NCBI GenBank assembly: GCA_965222225.1 | Contig: CBDCTK010000002.1 | Coordinates: 5,344,001 to 5,408,000 of the forward strand | Origin: Candidatus Poribacteria bacterium | GTDB taxonomy: Bacteria > Poribacteria > WGA-4E > JAJDTR01 | Length of the DNA: 64,000 bases | Reading direction: 5' to 3' | In this document: piece after piece, positions 30,387 through 53,048 of the stretch | Layout of the letters: each line of letters begins with the position of its first letter | How positions within the stretch are numbered: the stretch's first letter is position 1 | Made by a program: the position numbers and the translations under genes | The notes under the pieces: model-generated | Told to the model about the DNA's origin: nothing | Databases searched by the model: none | What the model saw: only the letters and a program-made list of their open reading frames with translations

Positions 30387-30639
30387 CGTTCAATCACTTA
30401 TCCATCAAGGCAATCGTACCTGATTCTAAACTAGGCACTCTTGTAGGGTGCGCACTGCGATCAAGGGAGTGAGTAGCGACCAGGATAGAGATCCCACCAG
30501 CCTTTGAAAACTCTAGCGGACGACAGGTAGTATGGTAGCGGAAACTTCGAATGTACACAGCCGATTCGAGAGAAACACGGACAAACTACAAGCAAATCCC
30601 CATCCTTCCCGACTTCCGCCCTTTGAGCGCCTCCCTGAA

Positions 30640-33535: not shown

Positions 33536-34555
33536 ATGGATGTGAAGTATACTGTTCTGATGACCGATTACGCATGGCCCTCGGTTGAACCCGAGCGCAA
33601 GGTACTGTCTGAGATCGGAGCAGAACTAATCGTCGCTGAAACGGGGGCTGAAGATGAATTGGTAAGCTTGGCGCCGCAATCCGATGGCATCCTTACATGC
33701 TGGGAGCAGACGACTACCGCCGTCATCAGAGCGGCTGAGCGTTGTCAAGTCATAGGACGTTGCGGCATCGGGCTTGATAACATTGATGTGAATACTGCAA
33801 CCGAGCTTGGAATTGTTGTCACCAATGTGCCGGCATATTGCATTGACGAAGTCTCCGATCACGCGATGGCTCTGTTATTGGCGTGTGCTCGGAAGATTTC
33901 CATCTTTGACCGGGAAGCCAAACGCGGCAGTTGGGTACGAGATGTAGGTCCCCCGGTGTACCGAATTCGCGGCAAAACGCTGGGCATTATGGGGTTCGGC
34001 AAGATTGGGAAAGCCGTAGTGCCGAAAGCGAAAGCCTTCGGACTTGATGTCATTGTCTACTCGCCGAGCCTATCCTCACAGGTTGCGGAATCGTGCGGTG
34101 TCCAAAAAGTTGAACTCCCTGAGTTGCTGATGCAATCCGACTTCATCACGATTCACGCGCCGCTGAATTCTAGGACTGAAAACCTCCTAGGGAAAGAGGA
34201 ATTTCGTCAGATGAAAGAGACTGCTTATGTCATCAACACGTCGCGAGGCGGGATCATTGACACGGCCGCGCTTTGTACGGCCGTACAAAAGGGGTGGATC
34301 GCTGGAGCAGGTTTGGATGTACTGGCTGAAGAACCTCCGGCGCCGGATGAACCGCTGATTGAATTGGATAATATTGTTATTACACCACACGCCGCCTTCG
34401 CATCTGAAGAATCAACATACGACCTTGAGGTGAGTGCTGCACGTGCCGTCGCGGATGTATTGAGTGGGAAAATGCCGGGGTCCGTCGTTAACCGAGAAGT
34501 TTTGGAAAGCCCGCTGCTTCGCGCAAAAGCGCTTGGCGATCAACCGAGTGGATAG
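33536..34555 (+). CDS. D-2-hydroxyacid dehydrogenase (SerA/CtBP-like)
   Basis: GIGLDNID, GIMGFGKIG, INTSRGGII, AGLDV..EP, ITPHAAF. Confidence 0.92.
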   Translation: MDVKYTVLMTDYAWPSVEPERKVLSEIGAELIVAETGAEDELVSLAPQSDGILTCWEQTTTAVIRAAERCQVIGRCGIGLDNIDVNTATELGIVVTNVPAYCIDEVSDHAMALLLACARKISIFDREAKRGSWVRDVGPPVYRIRGKTLGIMGFGKIGKAVVPKAKAFGLDVIVYSPSLSSQVAESCGVQKVELPELLMQSDFITIHAPLNSRTENLLGKEEFRQMKETAYVINTSRGGIIDTAALCTAVQKGWIAGAGLDVLAEEPPAPDEPLIELDNIVITPHAAFASEESTYDLEVSAARAVADVLSGKMPGSVVNREVLESPLLRAKALGDQPSG

Positions 34556-34811
34556 CGAGGGCGATAGAGATTCCCTCAAGCAAGCGAGTGATTAGCGATC
34601 AGCCGAACGAATAGTGAGGGATCAAGTGACTGAACAAGGGGCGCGATAGAGTTCCCATAGTAAATCCCGTGCGATAGAAATTCACTAGCCACTGCCCACT
34701 GCTTTAAGTTGCCATGCTTTCCAGAGTCGAAAACGCGTAATCCGATACCGTATATTTTTAGCGAATAAACCACTAAGTCGAGGTGCAAGGAGAGGTGCAA
34801 GGAGTTGTTAC

Positions 34812-36011: not shown

Positions 36012-36452
36012 AACCTGCCAAGAACCATCAGCCGTGTAGGAGCGACCTCCTGGTCGCGATTCCTTGCGGAATCGACAATCGTCAAATCACCGATTTCCCT
36101 TCTTCTCTTTCTTTGTAGGGATCAACCGACCGAATAGGATCAAGCGAGCGATTAGCGAGTGCGATAGAGATCTTAAGGCGATAGAAATCCCTGCGCAAAT
36201 CTGCGTTCCCTACTCTCACACACCATCGCTTTTACTAGCCACAGCCCACGTTTACCGATATCCGCTCTTCTCTTTTTGCCTCCTCATTCATCGCATCTCC
36301 GTCTCAAGCGAAGTTAAGAGCACTCTCACACCCCATAATCAGATGAAACCTCCCTCGTAGCGTCCTACATCTCGCTTGCTTTTGGAATGCCCTAGTGCTA
36401 TAATTGCCAAAATTGAAATGGCGTCAAATCCTAACTCGTTAAGGAAATCAAC

Positions 36453-41238: not shown

Positions 41239-42573
41239 ATGAAATATGATGCATGGTTTCAATGCAGTAGCGGGTGCGACGAGCAACATTCGCTTCACGA
41301 GGTGATTTATCGTTGCACTCGCTGCGAAGGGCTACTGGAAGTCAAACACGATATTGAATCCCTGAAACGTCGAAGCCCGGCTGCTTGGATTGAACTTTTC
41401 GAAAGGCGCTACATGGGAACGCAATACCCCTACGGCAGCGGTGTCTGGGGGAAGAAAGAGCTCGTTTGTCCAAGTATTGATGATGAGAACATTGTCTCGA
41501 TGTTCGAGGGAGGTACCAACCTTTTCTGGGCGACACGGTTCGGAAAGGAAATTGGGGTCTCCGACCTATGGATTAAGCAATGTGGCATCAGTCATACCGG
41601 CTCCTTCAAGGATCTGGGAATGACGGTGCTGGTTTCTATGGTCAAACAGATTGTCGCGAACGGTACCGACATTCGCGCTGTTCTCTGTGCCTCTAGCGGT
41701 GACACTTCTGCCGCACTCGCCGCTTATGCCGCAGCGGCGGGAATCCCCGCGATAATCCTTTTGCCGCAAGCGAAAGTCTCGCCCGCGCAGCTCTTCCAGC
41801 CGCTTGCCAACGGAGCAATTACACTTTCCCTCAAAACCGATTTTGATGGCTGCATGGCAATAGTTCAAAAACTGAGCGTGCGTCCGGATTTTTATCTTGC
41901 CAACTCTATAAATTCTCTCCGAATCGAAGGACAGAAGACGATTAGCATCGAAATTGTCCAACAATTCGATTGGGAGGTGCCAGACTGGGTAATAATTCCG
42001 GGAGGGAATCTGGGAAATGTGACGGCTTTAGGACTCGGGTTTCTGATGATGCGGGATCTCGGGATTATCAACGACCTGCCGCGGATTGTTTGTGCGCAGT
42101 CCGCCAAAGCCAATCCCCTGTATCAAAGTTATCTCGGAGACTTCAGTGAATTCAAACCGATGGCTGCACAGCCAACCGTAGCCAACGCAATCCAGATTGG
42201 AAATCCTGTTTCCGCCAAGAGAGCGATAAACATCCTGAAACGATTCAATGGAATCGTGGAACAAGCGACGGAGGACGAGTTGGCGAACGCCGCTGCAAGA
42301 GCGGATCGAACAGGGCTATTCAACTGCCCGCATACGGGTGTGGCGCTCGCCGCCCTTCTGAAACTCGTTGAGAGAAAGGTAATCCGATCTGACGAACGCG
42401 TGGTTGTAATCTCGACGGCAAACGGCCTAAAATTCCCCGATTTTAAAATTCAATATCATAACGGTGAATTGGACGAAGTTAATCCTCAATATGTAAATAT
42501 TCCACTGGGACTTGAGCCAGACTACGACCAAATAATGAAGGCGATTGATGTTTGTTTGGCGAAAGCGGAGTAA
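41239..42573 (+). CDS. thrC: Threonine synthase
   Basis: [37 protein letters not shown]. Confidence 0.93.
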
Positions 42574-42774
42574 GGACCTGTTTGAAGATCTAGTTGGAGT
42601 AGGGTGCGCACTGTGTTCAAGCGAGTGGATAACGAGTGCGACGGAGATTTCTATTCAATCATCAAATCGAAAATGGGATCTTGACAGGCGATAGCAGGTG
42701 ACAACAGAAACATGAAAAAAGCCCCTCCTCAAATGACCAAAAATGGCCTTGTCACCTATTATTCAAACATACTC
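42574..42774. mobile_element. MITE-like family B copy abutting the thrC stop codon
   Basis: TAA|GGACCTGTTTGAA ... TTCAAACATACTC. Confidence 0.55.
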
Positions 42775-42779
42775 AGAGA

Positions 42780-43340
42780 CTACGGCGAGTTTTTCAGTTT
42801 ATTTCCGAACTCTTTCTTTAATTTCTCCAGCTTGGGATTAATGGCAATCTGGCAATACGGTTGATATGAGTTTAGGGCATAATAATTCTGGTGATATTCT
42901 TCCGCAACGTAGAATTCGGCGGCGGGCACAATCTCGGTAACAATCGGATTCTGCCACAATCCTGCAGCGTCCGTCTCCCGTTTGGAATTTTCCGCGCCTG
43001 TTTTCTGTTTTTCATTGTGATAGATAATCGCCGAGCGGTACTGTGTACCGACATCTGCGCCTTGCCGATTCAAAGTAGTCGGATCGTGCGTTCGCCAGAA
43101 GACGTGGAGTAAGTCCGAGAAGGATATAACCCCGGGATCAAATGTGATTTGTACCACCTCTGCATGACCGGTCATTCCTGTACAAACCTGTTGATACGAC
43201 GGGTTTTGAACCGTACCCCCGGCATATCCGGAGATAACTTCATGCACACCCTTCAATTCTAGAAAAACCGCTTCAACGCACCAAAAACACCCGGCCCCGA
43301 GCGTTGTCGCCTCCAACTGATCTGACATTGTCTTCATCAT
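42780..43340 (-). CDS. msrA: Peptide-methionine (S)-S-oxide reductase
   Basis: GAGCFWCVE, TGHAEVV, DPTTLNRQG.DVGTQYRS, AEEYHQNYY. Confidence 0.97.
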   Translation of the reverse strand: MMKTMSDQLEATTLGAGCFWCVEAVFLELKGVHEVISGYAGGTVQNPSYQQVCTGMTGHAEVVQITFDPGVISFSDLLHVFWRTHDPTTLNRQGADVGTQYRSAIIYHNEKQKTGAENSKRETDAAGLWQNPIVTEIVPAAEFYVAEEYHQNYYALNSYQPYCQIAINPKLEKLKKEFGNKLKNSP

Positions 43341-46174: not shown

Positions 46175-46558
46175 TTACTCCTCCGCCACAAATTCAAAGG
46201 CATTTTGAATGTGTTCAAGTTTAGTGGGTGTAGACTTTGAGGAAAGGAAAACCGCAACAACATCAAAGCGGCAGGGAACATCCAATAGATTGTTGGCTTG
46301 GAGATAGCTCAGCGCGAGTTTGGATATCTGTTTCTGCTTGGCAGGCGTAACAGCCGCCTGCGGAACTCCAAATTTGAGGGTGCGCCGCGTTTTAACTTCC
46401 ACAAACACAATTCGCTTTCCCTGTTTGACAATAAGATCTATTTCACCGGAGCGCGAGCGGTAGTTACGCTCAAGAATTTGATAACCCCGGTCCGTGAGGT
46501 ATTCAGCGGCGAGTTCCTCTCCAATTCTCGCAACCTCTTTAGACTGATTCATTACCAA
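46175..46558 (-). CDS. yraN: YraN (UPF0102) family protein
   Basis: GEELAA.YL..GY.ILERNYR...GEIDLI..FVEVKTR, RFDVV. Confidence 0.93.
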   Translation of the reverse strand: MVMNQSKEVARIGEELAAEYLTDRGYQILERNYRSRSGEIDLIVKQGKRIVFVEVKTRRTLKFGVPQAAVTPAKQKQISKLALSYLQANNLLDVPCRFDVVAVFLSSKSTPTKLEHIQNAFEFVAEE

Positions 46559-46586
46559 TCCCTACGCCTCAGCTTCCATTACACAT

Positions 46587-47240
46587 CTAACACATGTCGG
46601 AGATAGGTTTGAAACTGCGCCGGTGAATGGGACAAGGCCCGTGCTGGGCAATTGCCTGAAGATGCTGAGCCGTGCCATAACCCTTATGTTGTCGAAAGCC
46701 GTATCCCGGATAGATTTCGTCGAATTCAACCATCAATCGATCTCGCGTTACTTTTGCGATGATCGATGCCGCGGCAATGGACTGGCTGAGAGAGTCGCCT
46801 TTCGGAATCGCTTGTGCAGGTGTAGAAATGCGGGGAAGTTGTGTGCCATCGACAAGCACATAATCCAGGGGTGGGACTATTTGTTCTACCGCATCTTGCA
46901 TTGCCTGCAGCGTAGCCTGCAGGATGTTCACTTTGTCGATAACTGTATTGCTAATGTGACTGACCTTTACCGCAATCGAAGTGCGCTGAATCTCGTCATA
47001 TAAGCGATCGCGTTGCTTTGGCGTCAACTGCTTTGAATCTGTCACCCCTTGGATGACGCAATCCACAGGAAGAATTACCGCCGCTGCTACCACCGGACCG
47101 GCTAACGGGCCACGTCCGGCTTCGTCAATGCCAGCAATGTGTCGATAACCTTCTCTTTGTAAAGCCAGTTCAATCTCTTGAATCTCGTAGTCACCTTCCC
47201 ATTCTGCTGCACTGGTGGCGAGTCGTCCCGGCATCGACAC
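46587..47240 (-). CDS. rnhB: Ribonuclease HII
   Basis: GIDEAGRGPLAGPV, DSKQL, IAAASIIAKVTRD, HKGYGT. Confidence 0.97.
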   Translation of the reverse strand: MSMPGRLATSAAEWEGDYEIQEIELALQREGYRHIAGIDEAGRGPLAGPVVAAAVILPVDCVIQGVTDSKQLTPKQRDRLYDEIQRTSIAVKVSHISNTVIDKVNILQATLQAMQDAVEQIVPPLDYVLVDGTQLPRISTPAQAIPKGDSLSQSIAAASIIAKVTRDRLMVEFDEIYPGYGFRQHKGYGTAQHLQAIAQHGPCPIHRRSFKPISDMC

Positions 47241-47722
47241 AACTTCACACCCAAAACCAAAGATTAAGAACCCGTTGGAAAACTCATTTCGAGTAGAACC
47301 ACCGCTCTGAAACTAACCTTTATTCAAGATTAAATCCCTGCACCAGTCTTTGCAAGCCCCAGAGTGGGATCAACTGAGCGGATAGCGAAGGCGATAGAGA
47401 TCTTAAAGGTTGGAGGATGTTAGAATCCGCCGGCGACTTTTCCCGATGCATCGGGCTGGGTGAAACACGAGTTCGAGTCTACAGGGAAGACTTTTTCAAT
47501 GGCCAACCAAAAAGACTAGATGGTTAAAACTTCACCCGCTTTTCTGGAACACTTGATTGACACCGTCTGTTGTACTGCTTAAATGTACAAAGTCAAACTA
47601 AGACCTCGCCCTTTCATCTGTGCTAAAATCTGTAACGGTCAGGCAGATATGAGACACTCCGAACTGTTCCCCTCCCGACCCTACGGAAACAAACTCCTGC
47701 GATTGGTGACGCATTGCAAAGC

Positions 47723-47850
47723 GTAGGGGTTGGGATCAACTGACTGGATAAGGAAGGATCAAGGGAATGGATAATGACCGATCAAGCGAATGAATAATGA
47801 GCGCGATAGCAAATCCCAATAGAACTCCCATAGAGATCCCCCCAACCCGT
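47723..47850 (+). repeat. REP hairpin containing three nested ~36-nt GA-hairpin units (representative of ~25 loci)
   Basis: Three GATCAA heads (47734, 47757, 47780) followed by three ATAG..TCCC tails inside GTAGGGGTTGGG...CCCAACCC. Confidence 0.85.
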
Positions 47851-47962
47851 TGGGTGCGGTATTCGCATTGGGAGGTGTTTCACATAAATGTCAACACGCC
47901 CTAATACAACTTTCCCCAAAACCCGCTGCGAGTAAGATTGCGCTAAGGCAGGCGGTACGAAA

Positions 47963-48322
47963 TCACTTCTGCGTTGCGAAGCGCCTTCGTTCGCGAACTC
48001 TTGCCGAATTTCCGGTTCTATCTCGCAGATAGTACAATTTGGCGCGTCGCACCGCGCCATATCGGAGCACCTCGATACTCTCGATGTTCGGCGAATGTAA
48101 TGGAAAAGTTCTCTCACTCCCTTCTCCAAAAGCCACACGTCGGACCGTAAAAGTTTCACTTAAGCCACCATTGGAGCGGCCTATCACTGTTCCCTCGTAT
48201 GCCTGAATACGTTCCTTCTCGCCCTCCCGAATCTTTGTGTTGACTCGCACCATATCACCTGGGCCGAATTCCGGGAAACCCTCCTTTATATACTCGCTCT
48301 CGACAGATTCAATTAGGTTCAT
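47963..48322 (-). CDS. rplS: 50S ribosomal protein L19
   Basis: [40 protein letters not shown]. Confidence 0.98.
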
Positions 48323-48449
48323 CGTTTGTCTATCCTTTCATTTGGTATTCTTTAAAATTCGGCTCACACGAGTTTTTCATTCATGGTGACGGCAGCGCAT
48401 GTATCCCAAAGAACGTCAATCGAAAAACTCGTCGAAATGCTTCAACGCA

Positions 48450-49184
48450 TCAAATAGATCCGTTGGTGCATGATGCGTGTAAAAAGTCGGTGTCTTCTTC
48501 CGTCAACTCAATTTCTTTGAGTAAGTCCGGACGTCGCGCGGCAGTTCGTCTCAGCGACTCCTCATACTTCCAGCGCATAATCTTCTCGTGGTGCCCGCTT
48601 AACAGAACCTCGGGTACCTTCATTCCCTCAAAGTCTGCGGGACGTGTGTAGTGCGGGTGATCTAACAACTGTTGGCTAAAAGAATCGTACTGAGCCGATT
48701 CATAGTCGCCCAACACGCCGGGTAGCACCCGTCCAACTGCATCAACCAGTACAAGAGCTGGAATTTCTCCGCCACTCAGCACATAATCGCCAATAGAAAT
48801 CTCGTCTGTAACCAATTTCTGACGTACACGCTCATCAATCCCTTTATAGTGTCCGCAAATTAGAACTATGTGAGTTTCAAGGGAAAGTGCCTCGACAAGC
48901 CGTTGATTGCACGGCTTTCCTTGGGGAGTTAAATAAATGACGCGAGTGTTTGACTGTGGACTCAATGCCCTGATAGCTGCGAACAGTGGCTCCGGCTTTA
49001 GAATCATCCCTGCGCCGCCACCGTACGGATAATCGTCAACCGTTTGATGTCGATCGCTCGCAAAATCTCGGAGATTGTGAACGTTAACTGTCAAAAATCC
49101 TGCGTCTTGAGCGCGCTTTAAGATGCTCACTTGCAGGGCAGGGATTATAATCTCCGGAAACAGAGCAATGACGTCAATTTTCAT
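48450..49184 (-). CDS. trmD: tRNA (guanine37-N1)-methyltransferase
   Basis: VDDYPYGGGAGM, ISIGDYVLSGGE, PHYTRP, VPEVLLSGHH. Confidence 0.97.
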   Translation of the reverse strand: MKIDVIALFPEIIIPALQVSILKRAQDAGFLTVNVHNLRDFASDRHQTVDDYPYGGGAGMILKPEPLFAAIRALSPQSNTRVIYLTPQGKPCNQRLVEALSLETHIVLICGHYKGIDERVRQKLVTDEISIGDYVLSGGEIPALVLVDAVGRVLPGVLGDYESAQYDSFSQQLLDHPHYTRPADFEGMKVPEVLLSGHHEKIMRWKYEESLRRTAARRPDLLKEIELTEEDTDFLHASCTNGSI

Positions 49185-52616: not shown

Positions 52617-53048
52617 TGGAAAATTAGAAAACTATCAGGGCAATCGCATCTGATTGTGAATGTATTGTAGAGTGGGCACCGCCCACCGCTTTTCGCCTTA
52701 TTGATTCACCACATGCGAAACACCAACGTGCGATCTGCAATCATCAAGTTACCGATTTCCCTTCTTCTCTGCTTTGTAGAGATCAACCGACCGAATAGGA
52801 TCACGCGAGCGATTAGCGAGTGCGATAGAGATCTTAAGGCGATAGAAATCCCTGCGCAGATCTGCGTTCCTTATCCTCTACTCGCCATCGCATTTACTGA
52901 TCGTTGGCGACTGTTCTTGCCGGTTTCCATCGGTAACCATCAAATCCCCAATTTTCCCCCTTCCCATCGCTTTTCATTTCTTCGTCTTGCCTAGTCTTAC
53001 ACTCTTTGCCCAGCCTTGTCACGGAGGCATACCTCACCACTATTATCG

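Follow-up and report, generated by a model that had tools for sequence, protein, structure and literature searches.

Three nested copies of a 35-37-nt mobile hairpin unit in the loop of a palindromic repeat of a Poribacteria genome

The DNA stretch analysed here, hereafter the window, comprises 64,000 nucleotides (nt) of a Candidatus Poribacteria bacterium (GenBank assembly GCA_965222225.1, contig CBDCTK010000002.1, positions 5,344,001 to 5,408,000 of the forward strand). At 47735-47840 it contains three copies of a mobile hairpin unit of 35-37 nt, nested one within the next in the loop of a repetitive extragenic palindrome (REP). We favour reading this cluster as a stack of three insertions of a tiny non-autonomous element, the first copy having entered the loop of a GTAG-tagged REP and each later copy the same spot of its predecessor, and give this reading a probability of about 0.55.

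Results

Structure of the triple nest

The unit is non-coding and follows the frame ATCAA-NN-GA-NN-GRATA-NN-GA-NN-G-CGATAG-N3-4-TCCC. Because this fixed frame surrounds four freely varying but complementary pairs, we describe the unit as a short hairpin with two tandem G.A pairs. Across 480 solo copies the consensus from about -3 to +36 reads G-S-G, followed by ATCAA NN GA NN GRATA NN GA NN G CGATAG N3-4 T C C (C).

All components of the cluster lie on the plus strand. The left arm of the host REP together with its GTAG tag (GTAGGGGTTGGG) occupies 47723-47734, and the right arm (CCCAACCC) occupies 47841-47848. The cluster is therefore contained in the loop of a GTAG-tagged hairpin (47723-47848) that the earlier note on this DNA had missed, and the 2-3-nt loop found in empty hairpins (TT, TG, TTT or TCT) is absent from the filled site. 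The head of the outermost unit, U1 (ATCAA-CT-GA-CT-GGATA-AG-GA-AG-G, 47735-47757), matches the pattern exactly with 0 mismatches and 0 unpaired positions. The head of the middle unit, U2 (ATCAA-GG-GA-AT-GGATA-AT-GA-CC-G, 47758-47780), begins directly after G22 of U1. The innermost unit, U3 (47781-47817), is complete, its head ATCAA-GC-GA-AT-GAATA-AT-GA-GC-G being followed by the tail CGATAGCAAATCCC at 47804-47817, and it is the sole unit of the three with an intact G-CGATAG junction. The remainder of U2 then resumes at 47818-47829 (tail AATAGAACTCCC), two target letters (CG) being missing at its site 23; with the final C of U3 included, this spot reads CA. The remainder of U1 follows at 47830-47840 (tail ATAGAGATCCC), as placed by sequence reading and by the parser.

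The three 23-nt heads are exact matches to ATCAANNGANNGRATANNGANNG at a spacing of 23 nt. In each of them all four stem pairs are complementary, with 0 unpaired and 0 conserved-position mismatches, and the heads of U1, U2 and U3 differ from one another at 8 variable stem positions. We used a recursive parser in which a new unit may start inside a unit, after which the remainder of the outer unit is sought. For the cluster it returned (23(23())), each inner unit starting right after G22 of the outer unit, which resumes at ATAG minus CG. On re-reading, the nested three-unit parse of the earlier note was correct to the base, as were its placement of each inner unit between the G and the CG-ATAG of the outer one, and its claim that every unit has its own compensated stem. 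Its rejection of tandem slippage also stands: the heads are unlike one another at all variable positions, and every one of them has a fully pairing stem. Empty sites in congeners and among paralogs agree with this.

Public contigs from four runs, belonging to four different studies, carry the locus. Two of these runs tile the three-level cluster by a left and a right piece (X14, 47371-47808 and 47781-48500; X3, 47472-47805 and 47788-48500), and among the pieces listed none extends across all of it. The cluster did not arise as an artefact of the source assembly.

Empty and filled sites

Four of nine genus mates (G009, G006, G002 and G004) have, at the orthologous position, the same GTAG hairpin with only 2 nt in its loop and without a unit, reading ..GTAGGGGTT(T)GGG-TT/TG-CCCCAACCC... 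Four of the remaining genus mates have an unrelated spacer there and one yielded no anchor. Within the source genome, paralogs of the host REP without a unit (GTAGGGGTTGGG-TTT/TCT-CCCAACCC) occur at 41 places, and three are filled. One of these bears a single unit whose head is identical to that of U1 (C2 minus-strand index 4923403; C2 is the 5.6-Mb contig), one bears a U1-like outer unit with another inner unit, and one is the triple itself. The paralogous REPs form a series from empty through one unit to three units.

Elsewhere in the window, the units at 30460 and 33275 have an empty counterpart in one relative each (G005 and G001, respectively). Of the solo units of the genome, 54 of the 353 tried match an 'empty' paralog, for example GTAGGGTGCG^CACTGCGCACC and GGGTGCGCACTGCG^CACCAGCC. 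None of 29 window clusters could be demonstrated to be common to five congeners whose genes are 80-91% identical; turnover of the repeats therefore outpaces the divergence of the species. The search for variants with fewer nesting levels, which the earlier note had proposed, yielded the empty REP in four congeners and no credible shorter allele at the locus in public contigs. Apparent joints that skip 38-39 nt were rejected, having sides of only 19-23 nt and deriving from other copies. This check used assembled contigs, which hide rare variants.

At 34539-34575 of the window a unit stands directly after the end of the same gene in three species (including G009 and G002), with stems that differ and are each self-complementary; two other species have no unit at this site. 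The shared position reflects either independent hits on a hot site or compensated change in place.

The host REP of the cluster belongs to a longer repeat (GCATTGCAAA.CGTAGGGGTTGGG...CCCAACCCGTTGGGTGCGGTATTCGCATTGG.AGGTGTTTCACAT) that covers 47711-47722 and 47849-47890 of the window; close paralogs of this longer repeat stand on C2 at plus-strand index 2038902 and 4833222. A solo copy of the unit (47369-47405, plus strand) lies 366 nt upstream of the cluster, inside another repeat (AGCCCCAGAGTGGG^...). Between the solo unit and the cluster, at 47420-47603, is a dispersed repeat of about 175-185 nt with dozens of copies at 75-92% identity. It includes the tRNA T-arm-like GTTCGAGTC, is present in the source genome and all nine genus mates, and is absent from the orthologous spacer of the four genus mates with the empty REP. 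In G001 and G009 the region syntenic to window 42540-42790 is filled by a tandem repeat of about 330 nt (estimated by eye; GTAGGTTGGGTAGAGCG...AAACCCAAC) with a long internal palindrome; in the window this spacer is short.

Abundance and distribution of the unit

The window holds 33 head-pattern matches against 0.05 expected from shuffles, none of 100 shuffles having reached 33. All but one of them (32/33) are on the plus strand, although genes occupy both strands. The whole genome (5.70 Mb, 2 contigs) contains 645 exact heads, of which 522 precede CGATAG and 71 run straight into a further ATCAA head; 1,488 heads are found when up to two substitutions are allowed. The parser counted 911 top-level units (681 solo) and 274 parent-child junctions, giving 1,185 units overall, and we estimate about 1,200-1,500 units in this genome. 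Nearly all top-level units (877/911) fall outside crude open reading frame (ORF) calls; by an arithmetic estimate, about 4% of this non-ORF sequence (roughly 1.1 Mb) consists of units.

In a sample of the phylum, the unit was present in 15 of 121 genomes and had many copies in only 12. Every sampled genome of the source genus was rich in it (330-820 exact matches to head plus CGATAG each), all four genomes of one other genus, from another family, had about 120-140 such matches each, and three further genera had traces of 1-2 copies. It was found in 0 of 82 sampled genomes of one family (f2). Viral contigs gave 0 matches and metagenome contigs of the JGI collection gave 2. A scan of 46500-49000 against Rfam 15 up to E=10 returned no family match, the only hit being a chance one to snoR1 outside the cluster. 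The features of a MITE were likewise not found: the ends share only GATC..GATC, which is not in all tail variants, and there is no target duplication at filled/empty pairs. A closing stem GGGATC/GATCCC was considered as part of the unit and rejected as not required: half of the units have C at base -2, and the stem is broken by the tail variants AACTCCC and AGTTCCC.

Tests of nesting across the genome

The parser's own closure test was dropped as evidence for nests; counts of 'closed' nests rest on split hairpins and on head and tail numbers because that test is too lenient. In 93 outer units whose hairpin is split by an inner unit, leaving the arms at least 37 nt apart, the arms still pair at 74.3% Watson-Crick plus 11.6% G.T, against 40.8% Watson-Crick in a null that combined arms of different units. 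The corresponding values for the 681 solo units are 82.9% plus 11.8%, against a null of 38.5%. Under a strict tail rule, in which exact ATAG motifs are chained at 10-14 nt (chance per step 272/20,000), one tail was found in 662 of 1,029 one-head arrays and two tails in 70 of 122 two-head arrays (one in 38, none in 8 and more than two in 6). Three tails were found in one of 10 three-head arrays, namely the cluster at 47735-47840. Head and tail subtypes are linked (mutual information 0.76 versus 0.55 ± 0.02), and in same-site nests nested order beats crossed order by 42 to 26 of 70 (2 ties, p=0.011); this link exists but is weak, and we set it aside as a bracket test for such nests. The nesting of units within units is confirmed. 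The bracket matching that the earlier note had called for across clusters holds in that split arms pair far above the null and head number predicts tail number.

Insertion sites

The left flank of the 480 solo units gives the motif GSG^: a G immediately precedes the unit in 93% of them, position -2 holds C or G in 91%, and position -3 holds G in 61%. Within units, insertion sites were mapped from 198 junctions that passed the lenient closure test. The inner unit starts after G22 in 96 of these, after G11 in the loop in 28, after G18 of the 3' G.A in 25, after position 16 in 19, after position 17 in 14, after position 9 in 6, after G24 in 5 and at positions 21-22 in 5. Hosts used after G22 (site 23) have C or G at position 21 in 77 of 95 cases, compared with 341 of 681 solo units (chi-square p=3e-9), an enrichment that fits the S-G^ rule.

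No target duplication was seen in any filled/empty pair examined. Instead, 0-3 target letters are lost on the 3' side of the unit. The losses take CG at site 23, A19 at site 19 and the purine of the loop at site 12; the REP of the cluster has lost its entire loop (TTT/TCT/TG), and the GTAGGGTGCG REP has lost CA, A or nothing. Thirty-two direct units occupy the corresponding G^C bond in an inverted unit, at CTATCG^C, and either orientation is therefore possible at that bond.

The earlier note had described the unit as its own preferred target. Self-targeting is indeed frequent, with 274 of 1,185 units (23%) lying inside another unit, but the unit is not its sole target: a GTAG tag lies within 28 nt upstream of 359 of 911 top-level units (about 38%), so that REPs are used more than the unit itself. 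The target is better described as 'hairpin repeats, itself included'.

Strand and orientation

Among solo stems, G.T or T.G pairs (at least 320) outnumber A.C or C.A pairs (at least 52) six to one, from which it follows that one strand, that with ATCAA, folds. The fixed G.A/G.A pairs would read T.C/T.C on the opposite strand. Folding with RNA parameters gave -1.37 kcal/mol for the top strand and -0.16 kcal/mol for the bottom strand. Folding with DNA parameters was discarded as evidence, the unit being indistinguishable from shuffles.

Units are co-oriented with the GTAG strand of REPs: against about 85 each expected by chance (by arithmetic), GTAG lies upstream of 359 of the 911 units and CTAC downstream of 46. 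Unit orientation shows no relation to the way in which adjacent genes run, with 305 units co-directional with the genes on both sides, 264 anti-directional, 136 between convergent and 172 between divergent genes. The ATCAA strand is on the strand of negative GC skew in 616 units versus 295 that are not (r=-0.69 at 200-kb bins), and empty GTAGG hairpins share this bias (210 versus 103). Genes lean the opposite way, 2,156 of 3,771 being on the G-rich strand, which is the usual leading-strand bias. By the usual skew rule the folding strand seems to be the nascent-lagging or leading-template strand, the skew being patchy.

The GC skew of C2 flips sign many times rather than forming two arms, and domains of unit orientation match it, for example with 77 plus versus 8 minus units in 5.2-5.4 Mb and 14 plus versus 72 minus in 3.0-3.2 Mb. 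Patchy skew and orientation domains together point to many inversions or an unusual replication layout.

Diversity, relative age and copying of nests

The 1,035 contiguous heads comprise 529 distinct sequences and 266 stem combinations, the four stem pairs being only partly linked to one another. Solo units have decayed at 0.42 per 15 fixed positions and have 0.21 broken pairs per head, about as predicted by arithmetic from the fixed-position decay. This match indicates that stem diversity was inherited from many structurally sound sources and not made in place.

In same-site nests, outer units have 0.53 unpaired stem positions per head versus 0.22 in inner units (Wilcoxon p=1e-4, 114 pairs). 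Mismatches at conserved positions number 0.61 in outer and 0.77 in inner units (p=0.36), a comparison biased by the seeding of outer units through exact ATCAA..GA. The expectation that inner units are younger is thus borne out by the broken pairs of the outer units but not by fixed-position mismatches, and in the triple all heads are perfect.

Identical heads occur within 2 kb of each other 61 times, a fourfold excess over the 15.9 ± 5.1 expected, and neighbouring units have the same orientation in 487 of 779 cases (0.505 expected). Positions 36121-36192 and 52782-52853 of the window are near-identical composites, each with an inner unit in an outer one, split at position 18, between a GTAG tag and CCCTGCGCA.ATCTGCG, and there are at least four copies of an inverted unit that hosts the same direct double nest. 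Some nests were copied whole within larger repeats, and a nest therefore need not record events at its present locus. This qualifies the idea of an ordered record of insertions: serial insertion is supported, but the present locus need not be the site of the events.

Discussion

In the reading that we favour, the unit would be mobilised in trans, either as a single folded DNA strand or into one, with that strand exposed during replication. Insertion would destroy the site that is used, leaving the innermost unit alone with an intact site, and a same-site stack would grow inwards; if each insertion destroys its own site, the order of such a stack records time. The agent that we prefer is a HUH/Y1 nuclease-ligase that acts on single strands, of the RAYT or IS200-IS605 type. 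We prefer this class because there is no target duplication, one strand folds by short motifs, the target is short, the unit is coupled to REPs and GTAG, and its orientation has a replication-type bias. By analogy with known systems it is the leading candidate among the routes considered here, although we hold it only tentatively, at about one chance in three.

Several observations weigh against this interpretation. The hairpin is thermodynamically marginal and, with DNA parameters, no better than shuffled sequence. A single weak hairpin and a ragged 3' junction fit HUH/Y1 enzymes poorly: at site 23 the loss of CG is uneven (56 junctions lose two letters, 21 one and 19 none), and HUH chemistry is usually precise. 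The folding strand is on the negative-skew strand, which by the usual rule would be opposite to the placement of IS200/IS605, with the reservation that the skew is patchy. As many as 1,779 of 5,000 random positions pass the parser's closure test. Finally, no enzyme of the genome could be linked to the unit. Its Y1 genes comprise 5 PF01797 hits, two of them clearly intact (C2:3080258-3080728 and C2:2563965-2564705), and units adjoin 3-4 of the 5 loci.

The best RAYT candidate lies at one of these loci. An intact gene for a 157-aa RAYT-like Y1 protein (L001 1339-2100; G000 C2:3080210-3080971) lies between inverted AGCCCCAG..GGGGCGACAGGT repeats, one of which bears a unit. As the cognate enzyme it was rejected, since the true inverted flank is the other repeat, adjacent units sit inside it and the phyletic pattern is mismatched. 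Homologs occur in unit-free genera (g6, 7/7 genomes; g3, 5/10), and none was found in 2 of the 4 genomes of g4 that carry the unit. Judged from its sequence, the locus looks like the REPtron of a second repeat family. Two further Y1 proteins were rejected as well, their phyletic fit to the unit being no better.

The alternative that survives best concerns place rather than process. The triple may have formed elsewhere and been copied in as one piece, either as a nested composite or as REP plus U1, so that fewer than three events occurred at the locus; we consider this unlikely, at about one chance in four. Whole composites have been duplicated, as the pair at 36121-36192 and 52782-52853 shows, the inverted-host double nest exists in at least four copies with 32 direct units at CTATCG^C of an inverted unit, and a paralogous REP bears the same U1 head alone. 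Against it, we found no second copy of the triple in the genome, the best other match being 80% over 97 nt, and look-alike triples in three other species are at unrelated loci and have different stems. Such an origin would also alter the place of the events and not serial insertion itself.

Slightly less probable, and in our view improbable, is spread without an enzyme by template switching. A nascent ..GSG end would leave its template at a hairpin, pair upstream of another unit, copy to ..TCCC and return slipped. The junctions lend this some credit, the 5' one being constant after G and the 3' one variable with 0-3 letters lost, while the GSG of the left flank resembles microhomology and the right flank often begins with C. 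Where two solo units have identical heads but unrelated surroundings, their left triplets agree in 238 of 1,026 pairs (23.2%) versus 14.2%, the pairs being non-independent. The enrichment of identical heads within 2 kb, the co-orientation of neighbours, the tracking of GC skew by orientation and the failure to find a matching enzyme gene among the Y1 candidates would also be accommodated. However, boundaries are constant in more than 1,000 copies where template switching usually gives ragged lengths, and the hairpin is too weak to force strand release alone. Confinement of the family to two genera (15/121 genomes, 12 with many copies) is a better fit to a specific factor. Identical heads may moreover be identical by state, only 9 positions being variable.

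RNA-mediated spread, in which a folded transcript of the unit would be turned back into DNA, is less probable still. A route with such copy-back was reportedly proposed for the small dispersed repeat (SDR) elements of cyanobacteria. The sixfold excess of G.U-type over A.C pairs and the better folding of the top strand with RNA parameters (-1.37 versus -0.16) would suit it, and contigs from a metatranscriptome run cover the locus, with DNA carry-over possible. Yet orientation is indifferent to flanking genes (305 versus 264) and tied to GC skew, and there is no Rfam match. The probability left over by the HUH/Y1, template-switching and RNA routes goes to a mechanism that has yet to be conceived.

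Tandem slippage of heads and tails or an assembly artefact, to which the exact 23-nt spacing of heads, the 11-13 nt between tails and the breaking of short-read contigs inside the cluster might point, is highly improbable given heads that differ at variable positions while each remains self-complementary, split-hairpin nests that pair across the insert, contigs of two other studies that tile the three-level sequence and the existence of empty sites.

The closest published parallels, by analogy, are the SDR elements of Nostocaceae and REPs. Elhai et al. in 2008 reportedly described SDR1-8 as very small dispersed hairpin repeats of Nostoc punctiforme and relatives, with compensatory changes, and judged them mobile. 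Some SDR families are reportedly nested in their own copies and one targets a specific short host motif, with no transposase identified. The unit shares these features, being a tiny dispersed hairpin repeat with compensated stems and self-nesting. It differs from SDRs, compared by description only, in size (35-37 nt against a reported 21-27 nt) and in host (two Poribacteria genera against Nostocaceae). The tandem G.A frame, the GSG^ target, the loss of 0-3 letters, the co-orientation with GTAG and the link to GC skew go beyond what is reported of SDRs. SDR5 was reported to insert in HIP1, and HIP1-rich cyanobacteria outside Nostocaceae yielded no SDR-like repeat (PMC5861425).

REP and REPIN elements are associated with RAYT (TnpA-REP) transposases (PMC2817692, PMC3116915, PMC3333891). 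Like REPs, the unit is a short intergenic hairpin repeat with hundreds of copies, a strand-specific fold and no target duplication, in a genome that has Y1 genes. At about 37 nt it also falls within the usual REP description of an abundant, intergenic imperfect palindrome of 20-40 nt. Unlike REPs, it has no GTAG or CGTC tag of its own; ATCAA stands 5' and GCGATAG 3' of its hairpin, and GTAG belongs to the host hairpins. Its stem letters vary while loop and flanks are fixed, whereas in REPs the stem sequence is the family mark. In contrast to REPINs, units are mostly single or directly nested and do not form inverted doublets, and in contrast to REPtrons there is no cognate, co-distributed RAYT flanked by inverted unit copies; here REPs are the targets. 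In some species REPs are reported to lie inside other small palindromes (PMC3733652). In vitro, TnpA-REP cleaves single-stranded DNA beside REP hairpins and ligates any 3'-OH to the end so produced (PMC8266576).

The unit resembles IS200/IS605 elements in that no filled/empty pair shows a target duplication and that a strand-specific hairpin stands beside a fixed short motif. It may also share insertion 3' of a short word, its target being only G-S-G^ with 0-3 letters lost, and an orientation tied to replication, as its link to GC skew would suggest. In IS200/IS605 elements the strand that folds is that of the lagging-strand template; for the unit, the skew link appears to have the opposite sign. 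The unit also has one hairpin instead of two subterminal ones, a target of about 3 nt, and loses target letters. Background on the single-strand 'peel and paste' of this group is given in PMC8266576 and PMC6006769. Our literature searches returned no paper on such repeats in Poribacteria; among the matches listed, titles and abstracts suggest CRISPR or general sponge-microbiome topics.

At 35-37 nt the unit is near the lower size limit of mobile DNA, and how so small an element is recognised, copied and placed is a question common to REPs and SDRs. The family offers clean material for it, with a fixed frame and covarying stems, a one-strand fold, discrete targets, many empty/filled pairs and logically ordered nests. 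A bolder possibility, which we regard as doubtful at roughly one chance in five, is that the unit is a self-propagating DNA hairpin without a dedicated transposase, spreading via a hijacked REP nuclease or strand switching at forks, with stacks as time-ordered records. If true, same-site stacks could be used to derive rates and bursts for the smallest known mobile DNA. On the practical side, units break short-read assemblies and, being quicker to turn over than species are to diverge, could be used to mark strains of their host, a still-uncultured lineage of sponge symbionts.

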